Shown here in pieces: positions 12,414-33,087 of a DNA stretch of 64,000 bases. Made by a program: the position numbers and the translations under genes. Under the pieces are notes generated by a model. The model ran no database searches. It saw only the letters and a program-made list of their open reading frames with translations, and was not told the DNA's origin. The stretch comes from Negaprion brevirostris. Lineage: Eukaryota. The first letter of the stretch is position 1, and each line of letters starts with the position of its first letter. The stretch lies in assembly GCA_030324005.1 (NCBI GenBank), contig JARDVH010000031.1, forward strand, positions 38,349,680 to 38,413,679, written 5' to 3'.

Positions 12414-15400
12414 AGTTGTTTTTTGGTGCTGGGACAGAATATTTGGAAAATCGAGAAAACCTGCGTGATGCATTTTCAGATGCCGAAGATTATTTAGATC
12501 AGGGAATGGTTTCTGCTGATCGTTGTGCAAGCAGAACATCTTCTATAAGTTCCTGGTCTGAGAATTTCAGGCCATCTTTCACTGAAAAGCTCAAATTCAA
12601 ATCTGTAATGGAAGGAGAACAAGCTATTTTTAAATGCAAGTTGGTTGCCAGCCCAGCACCAAAAATTGCATGGTTTCATAACAACAGACCTATATGTAAA
12701 GATTCAAGAAGGATTATTAAAATAGAAAGCGTAATGCACATTCACAACTCAAGTTTGGAAATCAATAATGTAGAAGAGAAAGATTCAGGGAGTTACAAAA
12801 TATTTGCAATAAACTCTGAGGGCTCAACAGAGGCAACTGCATCTTTACTCATTGCACTTAAAGAAGAGCAAAGTGCAAACTATCTGTGCTTTCTGAAAAG
12901 ATCAGAGATGGTTCACGAAAGTATAGACTCATTAGTTAAGAAGCGGGATGCAAGACTTAGAGTTGATCTCAGACATGTTGGATCACCCTTTGACAAGAAA
13001 TATCAGGTTCAAGGAGCTTTGCGTAAACATTCAAATTCTAAAAGCAAACTGATGCGTACAATGTATTTTGAAAGAACACCAATAAGGCATTATCTGTATA
13101 AGGACAGATCTGCAGAAATACAGTCATCTAGATTATCAGGGAGGGTTCTCGATAAGGATAGTTTGATTGATGAAGATATTAAAATTAAAATGCAGCTTTT
13201 ATTATAATACTGCAAAAGTGGGAAAAAAGAACTGAATCGAAAAATTCTTCAACAGAATGTGCAATTTATCCATCTCATCCTATTTTAATTAAAAAAATAA
13301 AAAATTTGAACAGAAAAATAAAGANNNNNNNNNNNNNNNNNNNNNNNNNNNNNNNNNNNNNNNNNNNNNNNNNNNNNNNNNNNNNNNNNNNNNNNNNNNN
13401 NNNNNNNNNNNNNNNNNNNNNNNNGCAGCAGAAGTATGGGAGATATTGATCACATGGATTTTGAACCTAGTAAGTCTTATTTTGTGCAAGGACAGGAGCT
13501 GTCTTCTGGTGACTATTTCCAGAGAGAGTCTCCTGAATTTCAGTGTCGAATGGAGCGGGTATCAGGACTTTCTCCGCAGGAAGTAGAACCACAAAGAGAC
13601 TTGAAAGAAAATTTTACTGAAGAATCTTCCAAAACAAAAGTCATAAAGTCATTACCAGAGCAATTTCTGAAAGGTAGTTTAATTCAAGAAACAGAACAAG
13701 CACAGGAAAGTCAGTGCTGGTTGGTAGAAGAGGAAACCGATGAATGCTATTTTCAGAAGCAATTTGATGAAAGAGAAGAACCACAGAGTGAACCTTGTGA
13801 AGAACCACAGACACTCTCTGACCAGTGGCTTGGAGGCTTTATTAGTATGCAAAGGGATATAATAACAAAGGGGCCTGGAGAGTTGTTTGAGCCTCCCACA
13901 CCAGCAGTTAGAGAAACACCAATAATTCAAGAAGCAGCAGAGCCTGAAGCCAGTGTTGAATACCCAGAGATTTTACAGAAGGAAAAAGAATTCCATCTGT
14001 TTGACAGAACACCAATAAAGCAAACTCCAGTGGAATTAAAAGAATGTCCAAGTAAATCTGAGTTGAAGGAAGACCATGAGATATTTTCTGACCAGTGGTC
14101 TGAAAGTTTGGTAAGTGTGCAGAACTCATTAGCAAAGGAAACTGAAAAGAACCAGTCAATGTTTGACTATTCCAAAGCAACTGAGATAAGTGGATCCAGA
14201 TTTGGTGAACAAGATGACATGGTGAAAGAATCTACACAAAAACAGATGCCTTCTCCTTTAATAGAAGAAAAAGAAGCCTCCACTCTTTTCAGAACATCAT
14301 TTGATGATAACACTACGGAAATAAGCAAAATTTCATGCAGAGTTGAAGACAAAGAAGACCCCAATGCACCTTTTGACAGATGGTCTGGGAATGTCTTAGT
14401 AAAACAGGGGTTTGGATTTGACCACATAATCATTGATCCAACAAAATCCACTTTCGAGGAAAGTGAGATCAGTGTCTCTAAAATCAACCAAAAAGCAGCA
14501 CAATTTGAAAATGAAGATTATACCCAGATGATAACATCCTCTACTTTGCCAGAGAAAATAGAAACCTCAGAATTTGTCAGTTCCTTGGTGAAAGAAATAC
14601 CAAAAGAGGTGAAGCATATTCCATTTAAATCTGACAAGGTGAACTATGGGACAGCTGTGGAACATTGGCCTGAGAGATTCATTAGTGTACCCAGTGACTT
14701 ACTAACTCAAAAACCTGAAGATGGTCATAAAATATCTGACCAACCTGCATCAGCAGTCAGGCAGGCAGAGGTAGTTAGTATGTCCAAAATCAGGCATAAA
14801 ACCCCACAAGATGAAGCACAGTTTACAGATTCCAACCATGTTGTGAGACATTCTCCCCTGATAGCAAAAATAAAAGAAACATCAACTTTTACTAGAACAG
14901 TGATAAAACAAACTCCAGAGGATATAAAAGAACCTCCATATAAATCTGTTGTTGAAGAAGAACATGAGTCACCTTTTGATAAAAGGCGAGGAAGATTTAT
15001 TTGTGTGGAGAAAGACTTTCCAGCAACAAAATATGAAGATAGCCACAAAATCCCACTGACTGATAAAGGCAGATCAGCAGTAGATCATGCAGAGGTGATT
15101 GATTTATCTAAACTCAGTGAAAAAGAGCAGCATAAAGGCAAGGTTGAAGAATTCACTACAATACTAAGACCTTGCATACCAGAAAAGAAAGAAACTTCAA
15201 TATTTGTCAGTTCACCCATAAGTAAAAGAGCAACAGAAATAAGAGAACCTCCATATAAACCTGAAGTGAAGGATAGTCACCAGATACCTCCAGAGCAATT
15301 TGTCGGAGGTTCTGTTGGTCTGATGAGGGATTTTGTAACTGAAAAGTGTGAAGATACCAATGGAACAACCAATAGGCCCATACCATTACTCAAACAAATA

Positions 15401-16490
15401 GAGACAACTAGCATATCTAAAATCAGTCAAAAAGAGTCACACCCTCTAGGTATGGTTACAAGCACCACCCAGATAATACACACAGAACCAGAGAGCAAAA
15501 TTGAATCAAGCTTTTTCATTTCTTTGAAGAAAGAAACAGCAATGGATTCCCCAAAAGAACCTGCATATGAATTTGGACATATGGAAGATCATGGAACAGC
15601 AGATGACCGACAGGCTAGCTTTCTAACTGAGAAACCTGAAGAGAGTCATGAAATGTATAACCAACCTAAATTTACAGAAACACAGGCTGAGATGGTTAGT
15701 GTAGCTAAAATCAAACAAAAAGAGCCACAATATGAAGCAAAGATTGTGCATTCCACATGGATGGTGAAGCCGCCTTCTTTATCAGATGAAATGGAAACTT
15801 CAACTTATTTAAGTTCATTGAAAATTCCAACTCCAATAGACAAAATAGAATCTCTTGAAAAAGCAGAAATTAAGGAAGACCCTGAGACAGCTGTTGAAAG
15901 TTTTGCCATTATGCACAGAGACTTCCTGACAGAGAACCTGGAAGGTGACCATGGAATAATTAATCAATCGGCAGATAGAGATATAGCAAAGATTAGCACA
16001 TCTGAAATTAGTCAGAAAGAATCACAACAAGAATGGAAAGTTAAATGTTCTACCCAAACAGTGAGACCTTCTCCTTCAACAGAGGAAAATAAAACTTCAA
16101 ATTTCTTCAGTTCATTAGTGGATGAGACACCAATACAAATACAAGAACATCAAAATAATTTTTTAGCTACCAAAGAATCTCCAAAACAAGAGCCTCCGAC
16201 AATTAAACATTGCCCACCTGGATTTCTCCATCATGTTGCATCTACTAAAATTAAGCAAGGAGACTTGTGTGTGCTTGAGTGCCAATTTCAAGGACACCCA
16301 CAACCTACTGTAACTTGGTACAAGGATGAACGCCCAATTCAACGAAATATGGGCTATACTATTCACTCCATGGAAAACCAATCTACATTGAGTATTGGAT
16401 GCACATGCAAAGAAAATGAAGGAGTATATACATGTGTAATATTCAACCAATATGGAACTGCAAGTACATCTGGCAGCCTTACGATACAAG
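12414..16490 (+). CDS. TTN: Novex-3 part 1 (Ig I18-like, repeat-rich unique region, Ig I19-like); apparent break at 13200-13424 beside an N gap
   Basis: ttttgcag|AG TTG TTT; RDAFSDAED, SRTSSISSW, AWFHNNRPI and AINSEGS match Novex-3; ends CAA G|gtaaga. Confidence 0.85.
13780..16150 (+). repeat. Degenerate coding tandem repeat of ~96-108 aa, about 6 clear plus 2 weak units
   Basis: Recurring S-K-I-x-Q/H-K anchors at 14477, 14783, 15107, 15416, 15704 and 16001, each followed by E-T-S-x-F and EPPYK/EDH-like motifs. Confidence 0.8.
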
Positions 16491-25687: not shown

Positions 25688-26850
25688 AGGAAATCAGCTG
25701 CGGTAAAATCATTGAGCCAGTCCCTCTGACAGCAAGTATGGGCTCAGGATCTGCCTTTCACCCTAAAAGCAGGACCCTGAAGCCCACAGTAAAAAATTGG
25801 CCCCACATTCAGTTTGGGTTGCTGGATAGTGATCAGGAAAATAAACATTTTTAGATTTTGTGTTGCCATAGCCTGGAGATGCTGAAGTCAATTTTAGCAT
25901 TTCATTGCTCCCTAGTTAAGAGAGGTTCAGCATTAATCAGGTTTTGTGTAGCACAGGGCTAGACAAATGTTACACTTGTCTCCTGAACCACTGGACCAGA
26001 TCCTGGCTTAGTAAATTGTTATCACATAAACCAATATGGGTTTGACAACATTGAGTTATCAGATGATTGGCAAGGTTTACAAATGAAAACTGTATTATTT
26101 TTCATTCTGAAACTTGGCAGACTATGAAATTATCAAACAGATAGTGTTATTTTTAAGGTAAAAGTAGGAATGCATTTTTCTCTTAGTTTGCTTGTGGTAT
26201 GACTTACTGCTCAAATGTGATTTATTTGATTGAAACATTTGTATTTCTGTGATGGAATAAAATTTATATTAGAAATTACTCAAGCCTTTAGAACATTTCT
26301 AGCATGCAAAATAACTTTGTATACTGATAATTAATACCAACATGACTACCTTGTAATGGAATTTTGTGAAGTTCCTATGGCAAGATGGTTACTGAGCTAG
26401 TTTTTACTCATTTTGATTCAGAAATGGAGAATATTGATGTGATGTAAAATCATTTTTATCTGTAAATAGTTACTGTGGCTCTTCAGAAGATATATATTTA
26501 ATATCTACAAATCTCAATAAATTTTAAGTTAAATGGTTTGATTTTGACTTGAGAAATGAAGGCAAGTTTTTCTTTATTTTGCTTGTAAGCTGTTCAAAAT
26601 AGCTTGAGGCAAAATTTCTCTCCTGCTTTGGACTAATTCTATTCACAATTAATGGATCTGATTGTATGTTTTAGTTAAAGATAAATCTTTGAGATGAACT
26701 ATTACAGAATTTTATTCTTTTGATGCAATTTGAGTTTAGCATGCTAAGTTATGTGATTAATTTTTGTGATTATTTTCAGTTTCCAGTATTAAGAAACATC
26801 ACTCACCATCAACACGCATTCTAAATTTAAGCATCTTATTTCTTATACAG

Positions 26851-29800
26851 AATTTTCTAGCTCTGTTACCGTCGCTGCTGAAGATAAGAGGGAAGATTTC
26901 TACAGTAGTGACCTCCATGTGTCAGATAAAACATTTGAACTCAAGCCTGAAACAACACCTCTTTCCAGCATTTCAGACATAGAAGCTAAGCCTTTAAAAG
27001 CAATACCAGCATTTGTTAAGAGCATTTCCAGTATAGAGGTAGTTGTGGAAGATGTAGCTAAATTCACTGTGACAATAACTGGATTCCCCAAACCCTCTAT
27101 TCAGTGGTTTCATAATAGTAAAAAATTGACTCCTTCATCAAATTGCAAATTTATTTATGATAGGGATGAATATAGTCTAATTATACCTTATGCAAAATTT
27201 ACAGATGAGGGAGAATATACTTGCTCAGCTGCCAGTGTGCTTGGAACAACTTCATGTAGTGCATATCTGAAGATCAAACCAAAAGATGGTATGGGAGGGT
27301 TTAGGACATCAGCTTCAAAACCTCCAGTTGCAAAACCGACAGATAAAAAAATAAGCAAAGAGGCATTCTCAAAGGAAATTATGTCAATGATTCCAACAGA
27401 AACCATACATACCCTTAGAGGTCAGCCACCACATTTTTTCAAAGAACTTAAATCTGTGCAGTGCCCAGAAGGTCTGCCTGCTAAATTTGACTATGTAGTG
27501 AAAGGTGAGCCAGTGCCAGAAGTGCTTTGGTATAAGGGGAATGATCAGATTCACCAGAGTGTGCACTGCAATCTTAGATCCAATCCTGACGGCTCTGGTT
27601 CATTAACTATCAATAATGCACAAAAAGAGGACAGTGGTTTATATTCCTGCAAAGCTTTTAACTCATTTGGTGAAACAACTTGCACTGCAGAGCTAATTGT
27701 ATTCAGTGGCACTTCTGCTACTGTTGAACATAAGAAACAGAAAGTAGTTCAAAAGCACCATACCAAGTCATACACAAAGACTGTTGGTGATCATGCCACA
27801 GAGTCACGTTTATTCATGGTAAAGTTACCTGGTGAGGCTCAGGCTGAATTACAAGACAGAGATCAACTGGTGTACACAATAGCTTCTGAAGGTAAACATT
27901 CTGTTCACAGTGAGCAGACCGGCACATTGCATGATGTGACTGTTTCTGCTGCAGAAACAGCAATTGCAGGAAAGAGACAGATAATAATGCATTCACAAAA
28001 CACACAAGAAAGCCTAGGTTATATAGAGCAACATTATGAACCAATTAAAAGTCCACCAATGTTTGAATTATCAAGCACTGAAGTACAATTAGATTCTGCC
28101 CTTTGTTTGCCCACAATTGAGGAGAAAACTTTAATTCCAAAGGAAGGCAGTTTTAGTATCAGAGATTCATCTACTATAGATACTAAGACAAAGACAAAAG
28201 AAACAAGCATCTTGTCTGTGGAAAAGGATCTAATTCCCAGCTCCAGGACTGTTGTAGAGAAAGAAATACCAAAAACCGAGCCAGCATACTCTTTGCACAG
28301 CTACAAGGTTGAGGGAGATCAAGGACCACCCAAAGAGGCATTGTTTGGTTTTGAAATTCCTGCATTACAGAAATGTGAAATACAAAAAGAAAGAAAAATG
28401 GAGGCTCATACAGCTGTAGCAATGGAACAGAATAAAATAAAACATGAAATGGCAGAAGACATACAAATGTTAGATGAAGCAAGAGAAGCAAAACCGTTTA
28501 AAGAATTGCCAAAACCATTCTTGATGACTGTCACTGAAAGCCAGAAATCATTAGCAAAGGAATCTCTGTTCAAAGTACCTAAAGCTGATACACAACAAGC
28601 TTCAGTTATGAAAGATAAACTTGTGAAAACTGCTTTAACTGCAGAAGAAAAACAACAGCTCACGAGTGAACACACCAAAGCAATATTTGGGTTAGACAGT
28701 GCAATCTCATTAACATCAAAAAAAGAAGAAAAGACACCTTTGCATTTACAGATTGTTAAGGGACAAGACACTCTGCCCAAAGAAACAACATTTACTTTTG
28801 AAGTACTGGCAGATGAGAAAGCTGACCTCAGAAGGAGCCCAATATTGCTGCATTCATTACTATCAGAAGAACAGCATCTTTTACCTCACGAATACACAAC
28901 TCCGTTACCTGATGTAAAAGATGCCGTCAGAACTAAACCTATGAAAGAGCATATGCCTATTTTATCTCCTCATTATATGGAGACTACATGCATTTTTGAT
29001 AAAGAAAGGATGCAACCTGATGAGAAACCAGCATCTCATGTTGCAGCACACAAACTTGAGAAAGCATACAGCTATTCTGCTGTTGTGGAAGAGAAAGCAG
29101 AATTGTTAGCTGAACAAACTAAAACACTTGAAAAGGAAGTTCCAAGTGTACAGGCTGAAGTTAAAAGTGAGCATTCAGCAGAAGAATACTGCCCAGCTGT
29201 AACTGTACCAATGCACCTATCAAAAGAGAAATGTTTTACTGTTGAAGAGAAAGAACAACGTGCAGTAATAAAGAAGTTGGATGACACAGTTAAACAGTTT
29301 GGTACTACAACAGAGATTAAGATCGTGGAAGATGGTTCACTTGCCATTTCTGAAGCCGTAAATNNNNNNNNNNNNNNAGATAAATATGAATCAAAGCTCC
29401 CTTCAGTTTCTGTGCAGGTTAAAGATAAGGCAATGCCTATAGAAAGCATCAAGACTTTAGAGGCTGCAGAAGAGGACTTTGCAGCAAGAATCCAAGAGGG
29501 TCAGTCAGTAAGATTTCCATTGCTGCATGAAGAAAAACAGCTCATTGAAGAGGAACATTCTTCAGGAATCAAGAGATCAGAGCAAACCATTCTGAAGGTG
29601 GAGAAACAACCACATGAAACACAATTTGCTCAAGTAATACAAGAAAGTAATGCATTCCATAAAGAAACAGCATTCAAGGCTGAAGTTCCTAAAGCAGTCA
29701 CCTTAGATGTTAGTACACAGATTAAGAAAGCATTGCAGTCAGCTTTAGCAAGTGAACATTGTGTCCTTTCTTCTATTTTACTAGGTAGCATAGAACCAGT

Positions 29801-30717
29801 GAAGATTAAGGAATTAAAAGTTCAAAAAGAACCTAAATATAATTTATATACATACCAGATTACTAATATCAATCCTCCCATAGACATAACTCTGTCATTT
29901 GAGGGAGAATACCCTCAGAAAGCTGACTTAAGAAAGGAATTAATAGCTGCCTTCCATGCCATTACTCATGAACAACAGCAGGCTTTGCTAGCCGAGGAAT
30001 TGAATATCATTCAGCTGCCAACTGATAGGTTAGAAAAATTGTGCATCAGCATGGCTCCTGCAAAAGAGATGATCTCACCTGAAGCTGTCAACATTGCTGA
30101 AAGCACCTCTGAAGTGGCTAGGTATGGAATGCATATGACTGAACAGAAAATTCAGACAGCAGAGAAGACAGTTGTTCAAGAAATGATAGTAACCACTGAA
30201 TCAGAGGATTTTATTCAGAAGTTTAAATCTGTAGAGACAATTAAAAAAGGGGCAGTCGTTAGTCACATAAGAGATGTTGGTGGTGTGATAATTACTAAAG
30301 ATGCCCTTTCAGCACCTGTCCCAGTAGAGCAACCAACAGAAATTCTTAAAAAAGAGAAGAAAATTGAGGAGCTTATAGTTACTAGCATTTCTAAACCGAA
30401 AAAGCCAGATGAAACACCGATAAAAATCACCAAAGACATTCCAGTAATTACTAAAGGGCTTACAGATATCATTGTAGATGAAGATAGTGATGTAAAATTA
30501 AGCACAGTCATTACAAAAGTTAACAAGGTAAATTGGTATATCAATGGGAAGAAAATCATTTCAAAAAATGAGTTCAAATGTTTACAAGAACTTGACACTT
30601 ACTCACTTATAATCAACAATGTACAGAAAGAGGACCATCAAGGAGAATATGTCTGTGAGGCACTGAATGAAGCTGGAAAAGCAACTACTTCTGCAAAACT
30701 CACAGTTATTATAAGAG
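26851..30717 (+). CDS. TTN: N2B exon (I24, I25, N2B unique sequence of ~910 aa, I26); human exon 49 equivalent
   Basis: tatacag|AA TTT TCT AGC (EFSSS)...ATA AGA G|gttgga, 3867 nt open (15 N). PPHFFKELK, NPDGSG, RIQEGQSVRFPL, EDHQGEYVCEALN. Confidence 0.96.
28275..30000 (+). repeat. Cryptic ~74-aa (222-nt) periodic repeat in the N2B unique sequence
   Basis: KE/IE anchor codons at 28332, 28557, 28779, 29001, 29223, 29439 and 29661. Confidence 0.75.
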
Positions 30718-31639
30718 GTTGGATTATGGGGATAAAATCTTTGTTAATACGAACTTCAAAAGCTAATATATTGAACTAACTATGTAGTTAACTTTTGATA
30801 TTAGTTTCTCAAAACTCAACTGAGTTTATGCCAATAAATTAACATGACTAAATATTTCCTTCCCTCCTTCCTTCCATTCCTGTCTTCCTTTTTTACCTTC
30901 CTTATTTTAAAAGTAAAAGCATTATCTAGTTATCAATCTCTATACCGTGCAGTCAAAGCCTGATCAGACCGCATCAGTTGATTTCACAGATATTTTGCAT
31001 CAAAAATTTCAAAACTTAACATCATTAATTTAGGAAACCTAATCTGGTTTTGTATTAATTTAAATGAAAATTGCATTCTGGCTTGATGCAATCTTCAGAT
31101 GCNNNNNNNNNNGTTATGTTTAAACTTTACTGTGACTATATTATTATTTTTTGGTCTCTTATACTTTAACATTAACTTTTGATTAACATCAGCCATGGTG
31201 CTTTAAGTTTCTACTAACAGAATTAATATTGCTTTCATCCCCATATCCATATTTGAGGAGTTGCTAGATTTTTTATCATTATCATCACTTTGTCATAACG
31301 AAAATACATTTCTTCCTAAAACTTAATATCACCGTTTCTGTCATTTTTTTTTCTCTAGGAAAACATTTCATAGACGTACCAATTATTTGCATGTTTCTAT
31401 GGACACCACACATGTCAATAAATGTTGAATTTCATTCGTTGAAGTCTTTCATTTGTTGAGCACAACCACTGGTCAGCTAACATTTTTAACAATCATTTCT
31501 TCTCCACAGTCACTCCTTGGATTGTTAGTTACTGTCACCCTCCCTCCTCCATCTATGAATTTCAGGGGGTCACATGCGAAAAGAATTACAGTTAACTATT
31601 GCAGTATTTTCACATATTTTCCTTTAATTTAAATCATAG

Positions 31640-31918: not shown

Positions 31919-33087
31919 GTAAGTCATCCATGTTCAAATTGTCTTTCATTTTAACAATTTGTTTTCAATCAGACTGTCTTAAAAGATTTGGATGGTTTCA
32001 TAGGTACCTTTACTTCACATATGTCTTAATATCACTTTCAACAATAGCAACACATGTTTTGATATTTTTATATCATTTAATTATGAAAATAGCTACATTT
32101 TGAAAAGATATTTAAATATTCAATGACTTTGCCTATCATCTGTTCATTTTTTTAAATAAAATCACTGTTGTGGCTTCTTTGTTTTGATAAAGCTGTCTGT
32201 TTTGCTAATAGAGTGGGTTGAATTTTTCCATTTGGATCATGAGTCTAACCCTGGCCCCAGAAGTGGCAGTGGTGGAATGTTGCTTGTGACCTTCCCAGAG
32301 GCAACCAATTGGCCTCTGGAAGCGCTGTCCAATTAAAGACAGCAGGAGGACCAATGAAGTGAGGGCATGTAACAATGTCTGGCTCGCAGCCCACTAGAAG
32401 GGTGGACTGAGATGAGCAGGCAGCCATCAGGGATTTCCCTAAGATTGATATGCTCTCCAGAGGATTTTGAAATGCTCAAAATCCCATTTGGTTGCATCTA
32501 TCAAGCCATCAGTGTAAAGGATAAGCCCACAACAGGTTTGCTTGTGGCCAGGAGGCTTTATTCAGGTAAATGATGGACAATAGCCTCATTGGGTGGTCCC
32601 CAACAATGGCATCTCTCCCCCAGTTGGTTCAGTAATGTGTTTAAAGCATTACAAATTCATTGCAATAAATTAATATATCTGTATAGCTGCATGATTAGTA
32701 TACAACTGTTGAAATTAAACTATGATACATATTCCTCCACATATAAAACTTCACCTTTAGAAAAATACTTAATTTTGAATTCATATCTTCCTTCAGTAAC
32801 ACAATACAGCACCTTGGCATCCGAATCAGTTTTGTTACCTAGATAATTGTTTTGCAAATTAGTTTTTTTTCTGACTGTGAGCTCTCTGAATGCCACAACA
32901 AATGCAGCAGAGGTTATCAAAAATGCTGCAACAAATGCAGCAGAGAACATCAATGTCATCTCTTTACTTGTGTCTTTCTGATTTTCTTTAAAGTAGATCG
33001 GGACAATATAACTGTCCTAAATGAGTACTAACTTAAAGCTTAATTCCTTCAAAAATGAAAATCCTAACCAAGATGTTTCTTTTGTAG

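Follow-up and report, generated by a model that had tools for sequence, protein, structure and literature searches.

The window, that is, the whole stretch of 64,000 nucleotides of Negaprion brevirostris DNA that was analysed, was found to be part of a titin gene and to contain two giant exons followed by a run of exons encoding Ig domains. The N2B exon was colinear with named titins and was located between a Novex-3-like exon and the tandem Ig exons. The name of the upstream exon is tentative and is based on the likeness of its layout to that of the quail protein P0012. The N2B exon and its central part had the following positions.

26851..30717, + strand: titin N2B exon (Ig24, Ig25, unique sequence, Ig26), recognised by its open frame, splice signals and I-set matches
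27705..30437, + strand: N2B unique sequence, 911 aa, between Ig25 and Ig26

The exon contained an open frame of 1328 codons with three I-set matches (Pfam), and its layout was that of one large exon encoding Ig, Ig, a long unique sequence and Ig. It was bordered by AG at 26849-26850 and by GT at 30718. Splicing was seen in the X1 contig of a related organism, presumed to be RNA, which covered 26849-30715, skipped 922 nt with GT and AG at the ends and resumed at 31638. The best relative of the exon product was a titin-like protein of Mustelus asterias (91%). No Pfam family matched the 911-aa unique sequence. Heart-specific N2B expression is known for the elephant shark, according to the available part of PMC12241362.

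Some other features of the locus were observed. At 30163, 45 nt (15 aa) that were present in the Mustelus protein P0001 and in the X1 contig were absent from the shark exon; the difference lies in the part of the unique sequence downstream of the repeats, in which indels were frequent. In the intron, the segment 25500-25700 stood out by very deep read coverage and numerous loose ends, which mark a high-copy interspersed repeat. A two-copy tandem repeat of 33 nt was located at 32889-32953, directly upstream of an Ig exon.

The period of the N2B unique sequence

It was claimed in an earlier note on this DNA that the unique sequence is a cryptic repeat of about 74 residues marked by the motifs PPKEALF (28332), LAKESLF (28557), LPKETTF (28779), FDKERM (29001), LSKEKCF (29223), MPIESI (29439) and FHKETAF (29661) and by a weaker IPKEGSF (28140). 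All eight motifs were found in one common reading frame, seven of the coordinates marking Lys of K-E and 29439 marking Ile of MPIESI, and the spacings of 225, 222, 222, 222, 216 and 222 nt between the anchors were correct. The assembly gap, given as 15 Ns, consisted of 14 (29364-29377). The 216-nt step was considered as a possible artefact of this gap; however, the spacing in Mustelus P0001 was identical, and this explanation was rejected. A second motif claimed to lie about 30 aa after the anchors was indeed located 30-31 residues after them, but its strict form occurred in 3 places only.

When the translation of 28131-30000 was subjected to BLOSUM62 autocorrelation, lag 74 was significant against composition-matched shuffles, the check on which the earlier note had made its claim depend (z 6.8, 0/1000). 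Further peaks were observed at lags 148 (z 3.9) and 295 (z 3.7), and none of the 1000 shuffles reached the top z at any lag. In the whole 911-aa unique sequence, the signal was weaker (lag 74, z 4.1, 5/1000 shuffles). Against shuffles of 10-residue blocks, lag 74 had z 6.4 (0/500). The period was not due to cherry-picked anchors, since the lag-74 peak persisted after masking of positions 15-21 in eight units (z 6.2, 0/500). An assembly artefact was also rejected because the Mustelus spacing was equal across the gap, an independent contig spanned the exon, and the orthologues were in the same register. At the DNA level, the signal was carried by codon positions 1 and 2 (0.35 and 0.40 versus 0.27 and 0.30) and barely by position 3 (0.33 versus 0.31), and Tandem Repeats Finder listed nothing within the N2B array. 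Therefore, it may be concluded that the duplication is old.

Each unit was then scored with an HMM built without that unit (leave-one-unit-out) and compared with 500 shuffles. The units and their scores, with the number of shuffles reaching the score, were as follows.

28092..28283, + strand: unit 1, 64 aa in the shark (74 in the turtle-like group), 16.6 bits, 0/500
28284..28508, + strand: unit 2, 75 aa, 19.3 bits, 0/500
28509..28730, + strand: unit 3, 74 aa, 43.1 bits, 0/500
28731..28952, + strand: unit 4, 74 aa, 49.8 bits, 0/500
28953..29174, + strand: unit 5, 74 aa, 13.9 bits, 0/500
29175..29390, + strand: unit 6, 72 aa, includes the 14-N gap, 5.5 bits, 4/500
29391..29612, + strand: unit 7, 74 aa, 12.4 bits, 0/500
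29613..29834, + strand: unit 8, 74 aa, 22.5 bits, 0/500
29835..30020, + strand: unit 9, partial, about 60 aa, 25.1 bits, 0/500

Thus, 8 of the 9 units exceeded all 500 shuffles, and unit 6, the remaining one, was aligned with unit 5 by HHalign at offset 0 (95%). Unit 9 had been missed in the earlier note and was never part of the model that detected it; HHalign gave 84-92% for its match to unit 8 at offset 0 and 3-44% for the other units. A weak upstream unit near 27870 (5.8 bits, 4/500) was left out of the count. It was thereby confirmed that the shark N2B unique sequence contains nine degenerate units of about 74 residues, extending from 28092 to about 30020. No other array was detected by the unit model across the window, and a search of the shark's own genome with a single 148-aa piece matched the N2B exon alone (3 matches).

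The pairwise identity of shark units 2-8 was 10-30%. The common pattern included a hydrophobic stretch at 3-9, L-P-K-E at 15-18, F21, P26 and A31; these were followed by a helix-like stretch with E-E at 47-48, L52, E55 and L60 and a terminal K-E-P. Hydrophobic positions recurred across all units, and the units were acidic, with a net charge of about -3 each.

A second cryptic repeat, unrelated to the first, was observed in the Novex-3-like exon (14060-16180, + strand). It comprised seven units of 96-105 aa with the anchor E-T-S-x-F-x-S-S at 14273, 14561, 14876, 15191, 15503, 15794 and 16091. Lag 105 had z 4.8 (0/200 shuffles), and all 7 units passed the leave-one-out test (0/300 each), the anchors having been chosen by eye and by pattern. 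The model of this repeat matched neither the N2B units nor the quail protein P0012.

Orthologous units and the constraint on their length

In-register units were found across jawed-vertebrate orthologues; the same units were present in chimaera, ray, teleost, frog, bird, turtle-like and mammal-like sequences. In a first set of 16 unique sequences, lag 74 ranked top in 14, and the remaining two peaked at 37 (quail) or 148. Another 17 sequences all had a top lag that differed by no more than 1 from a multiple of 37; in 14 of them, no more than 5 of 150 shuffles attained it, and the other three were not significant singly. The tree of 28 selected sequences contained clades of cartilaginous fishes, ray-finned fishes, amphibians (including Leptodactylus), birds, turtle-like and mammal-like sequences. 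The exons of the turtle-like group were near 1300 aa, which is the turtle exon length given in the available part of PMC11033294.

The label 'mammal-like' for P0052 was based on the length of its unique sequence, 573 aa versus 572 in human, and on its apparent likeness to human titin. Taken on its own, P0052 had no significant periodicity (35/150 shuffles), and this may be why the repeat was overlooked earlier. Six of its units passed the leave-one-out test at 0-1/300 each; of the array, units 5-9 remained in it, preceded by a part of unit 3 and by what is left of unit 4. Unit 6 of the mammal-like sequences was 68 aa long. Another mammal-like N2B exon, P0054, had a unique sequence of 349 aa and retained units 7-9.

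Chimaera, teleosts, frog, birds and mammal-like sequences have lost N-terminal units or contain them in truncated form. The losses were mostly in units 1-4, and the birds lacked 417 alignment columns. Because the units are orthologous one to one, the array is older than the split of sharks and bony fishes. As judged by these alignments, the N2B unique sequence of jawed vertebrates consists of worn 74-residue repeats, up to nine of them in succession.

Constraint on unit length was evaluated as the number of distinct gaps per 100 aa in 20 sequences. This number was 2.3 in units 2-8, where the gaps were mostly single residues, whereas the flanking parts within the unique sequence had 14.3 and 24.8. 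The identity of units 2-8 (0.31) was similar to that of the flanks (0.32 and 0.22), and the orthologues were about 30% identical overall. In addition, 196 slots (28 sequences x units 2-8) were counted, in which the rows are related and the counts are thus not independent events: 168 slots were intact, and 161 of these had 72-75 aa. Glu18 was present in 162 of 171 slots, and position 18 of unit 9 was Glu or Asp in 27 of 28 rows. Conservation between units tracked conservation between species (rho 0.53), with p<0.05 in 4 of 7 held-out units. Losses of at least 29 aa between anchors were also counted; 2 of 9 were within 1 of 37, and quantisation of deletions in multiples of 37 was rejected on this full count. 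The large deletions began and ended anywhere within units, so that broken units are evidently tolerated. Together, the autocorrelation, unit models, gap counts and unit lengths supported the claim that a module of constrained length was duplicated in tandem. What was observed directly is the repeat itself, its register and one-to-one orthology across jawed vertebrates, the constraint on its length and its near-invariant Glu.

A sub-period of half a unit was also detected. Autocorrelation of the orthologue profile gave z 15.4 at lag 74 and z 6.1, 5.9 and 5.4 at the odd multiples 37, 111 and 185, respectively. The two halves of the unit were aligned with each other at shift 37 (z 5.5, 0/2000); when half A was compared with half B by HHalign, only 4.9% was obtained. 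Each 74-residue unit is therefore likely, but not certain, to consist of two 37-residue halves by origin.

The end of the array

The structure of units 7-9 was predicted with AlphaFold2, and a putative domain was located at the end of the array.

29709..29999, + strand: predicted folded alpha/beta domain (AlphaFold2), from unit 8 position 33 to unit 9 position 55

The predicted elements were H107-134, E139-146, E150-157, E164-171 and H177-203, i.e. three strands with a helical region on either side, which agrees with the human domain in layout, in a length of roughly 100-115 aa and in the position near the C-terminal end. The pTM of the model was 0.36 overall, and the pLDDT was 71-80 for residues 141-200 and 46-67 for the first helices. 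The predicted domain mapped to 366-462 of the 573-aa P0052. In human N2B-us, a folded domain of 115 residues, 354-468 of 572, was reported by Sun et al. 2024 (PMC11530556, available part). The evidence, for human only, came from tweezers and melting: the domain was thermally stable and unfolded under forces of a few pN; according to the same part of that article, N2B-us without the folded domain had no unfolding step. The human region is orthologous by its flanking Ig domains and has the same predicted helix/three-strand/helix domain at a matching position, whereas the available part of PMC11530556 describes no repeat, and the shark region has 911 aa and nine units. Because the predicted fold of units 8-9 maps onto its position, the known human domain is very likely made of repeat units.

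For units 3-6 (15 sequences), AlphaFold2 predicted helices and no compact fold (pTM 0.18, mean pLDDT 50.7). In unit numbering, the predicted helices of units 3, 5 and 7 coincided with the one of unit 9. The residual structure proposed in the earlier note was thus found for units 8-9, as a predicted domain at the place of the human one, but not for units 3-6. Its premise that N2B-us is normally treated as disordered needs correcting in view of the domain reported in 2024 (PMC11530556, available part). A complex prediction for the unit 3 helix and unit 4, which was run without alignments, gave no verdict (score 0.00). Foldseek returned no match at E<=0.001. With VIA-align, the best Z was 4.8; nearly all rows fell on the unit 7 helix, and the alpha/beta domain was hardly covered.

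Unit 7 was the best-conserved unit between lineages, with 36-51 of 74 residues identical in six orthologues. Its identity was about 50% from shark to teleost or bird, and it was predicted by AlphaFold2 to be a single long helix. This unit may be regarded as a candidate specific binding site.

Relation to known repeats and possible nature of the units

A search of 1.84 billion representatives with a two-unit profile at E<=0.001 yielded 28 hits, all titin N2B; 4 were already known orthologues, and the other 24 had N2B-exon proteins as best matches. Repeats of similar size occur in the elastic part of titin-like proteins, namely the SEK repeats of crayfish I-connectin and Drosophila Sallimus. The profile matched no invertebrate SEK or Sallimus repeat at E<=0.001, a cut-off below which weaker remote homology could fall. 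No hits were obtained among PDB sequences at E<=10 or in Pfam, and the ESM Atlas gave no usable hit. The PPAK repeats of titin PEVK, of 26-28 aa (PMC8553726, available part), are likewise repeats within an elastic I-band segment. However, the N2B repeat has a period of 74 (37), occupies one exon rather than many and keeps a hydrophobic pattern, and P+E+V+K made up 33% of the shark N2B-us versus about 70% in PEVK (PMC12241362, available part). In full-text searches of the literature, no description of an N2B-us repeat was found; papers on N2B conservation (Witt 1998, Hanashima 2017, Honda 2018) may mention one. The N2B repeat is real and conserved and, apparently, so far undescribed.

We lean, with slightly less than even confidence, towards an array of nine modules, the last one and a half of which fold, while the upstream ones are weakly structured and become ordered at low force or on a partner. 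Since the terminal repeats are predicted to form a folded domain, the spring likely consists of weakly structured modules and not of random coil. An element of about 37 residues would have been doubled to 74 and multiplied before sharks and bony fishes split, with all units keeping a strand-strand-helix-strand hydrophobic pattern. Unit 9 appears to be the sole unit with a hydrophobic strand at 16-23 (hydropathy 1.15 versus -1.25 to 0.31 in the other units), which can explain why the end alone would fold stably by itself. The upstream L-P-K-E and E-E motifs may be repeated points of contact with an adjacent unit or with a partner of N2B, e.g. FHL2; the region used in an FHL2 pull-down, human 79-308 (PMC11530556, available part), corresponds approximately to units 3-7. 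Stretch would open the weak modules reversibly, and lineages may have adjusted the length of the spring through the loss of N-terminal units, with the folded end retained. In rabbit sarcomeres, the region extended late, to half of its contour length, and its partial folding was proposed by the authors (PMC2150553, available part). Against the module reading, the invariant residues are charged and not core-like, AlphaFold2 gave no fold in units 3-6, no human unfolding step was found outside the domain, and broken units are tolerated.

The charged invariant residues and the lack of a predicted fold in units 3-6 would also suit units that never fold and offer short linear motifs (L-P-K-E, E-E) at set intervals to a soluble partner with several domains, the spacing being kept for avidity. 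FHL2 binds many sites of the unstructured part, although its predicted sites are 5-15 residues apart and not 37 or 74 (PMC11530556, available part). We consider this explanation rather unlikely because the period persisted with the anchors masked, the hydrophobic pattern and length are kept across whole units, and Glu18 is retained within the predicted folded unit 9.

The actin step is 5.5 nm, the nebulin repeat has 35 residues, and a conserved Tyr motif is the mark of nebulin-type actin-binding repeats. If one 37-residue half matched one actin subunit (37 x 1.5 A = 5.5 nm), the unique sequence could be, now or formerly, a nebulin-like ruler of the thin filament, and the sub-period and the alignment of the halves described above would be accounted for. 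Like nebulin-type repeats as generally described, the units have a sub-period near the actin step and no stable fold predicted alone; in contrast to them, shark N2B has 1.0% Tyr, no conserved Tyr column, acidic units and no Pfam match. The thin filament had been put forward as a periodic ligand in the earlier note, and this proposal was not borne out. According to the available part of PMC8553726, which cites Yamasaki 2001, the mammalian (human) N2B-us showed no direct binding to actin; in the available part of PMC2150553, the overexpressed unique-sequence construct left thin filaments intact, and the region extends freely by about 60 nm. The negative charge of the units, the low HHalign value for the halves and the large deletions, which are not multiples of 37 or 74, also argue against such a ruler, and it is regarded as improbable. 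Little credence is likewise given to a relic of exon growth in an entropic coil with one terminal domain: the low identity between units, the lost or cut N-terminal units and the lack of unfolding steps outside the human domain (PMC11530556, available part) are consistent with it, but the units have six to ten times fewer gaps than the flanking parts of the exon, and this and the retention of Glu18 despite the low overall identity speak against it.

The conserved repeat gives N2B-us a coordinate system and explains the origin of its folded domain. The passive stiffness of the heart is set by this region, which contains kinase and FHL2 sites and for which the current model is a coil of 572 residues with a single folded domain. 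Unit loss accounts for much of the difference in N2B-us length between species, and the repeat singles out K17, E18 and E47/48 as residues with a testable role. The module reading may be widened to an N2B spring that, in human as well, is built of 37/74-residue modules folding against one another or against a periodic partner in the sarcomere, with the force-sensing domain as the terminal module; this is possible but doubtful. If true, the K-E and E-E positions would map functional sites for titin missense variants and for the tuning of heart stiffness.
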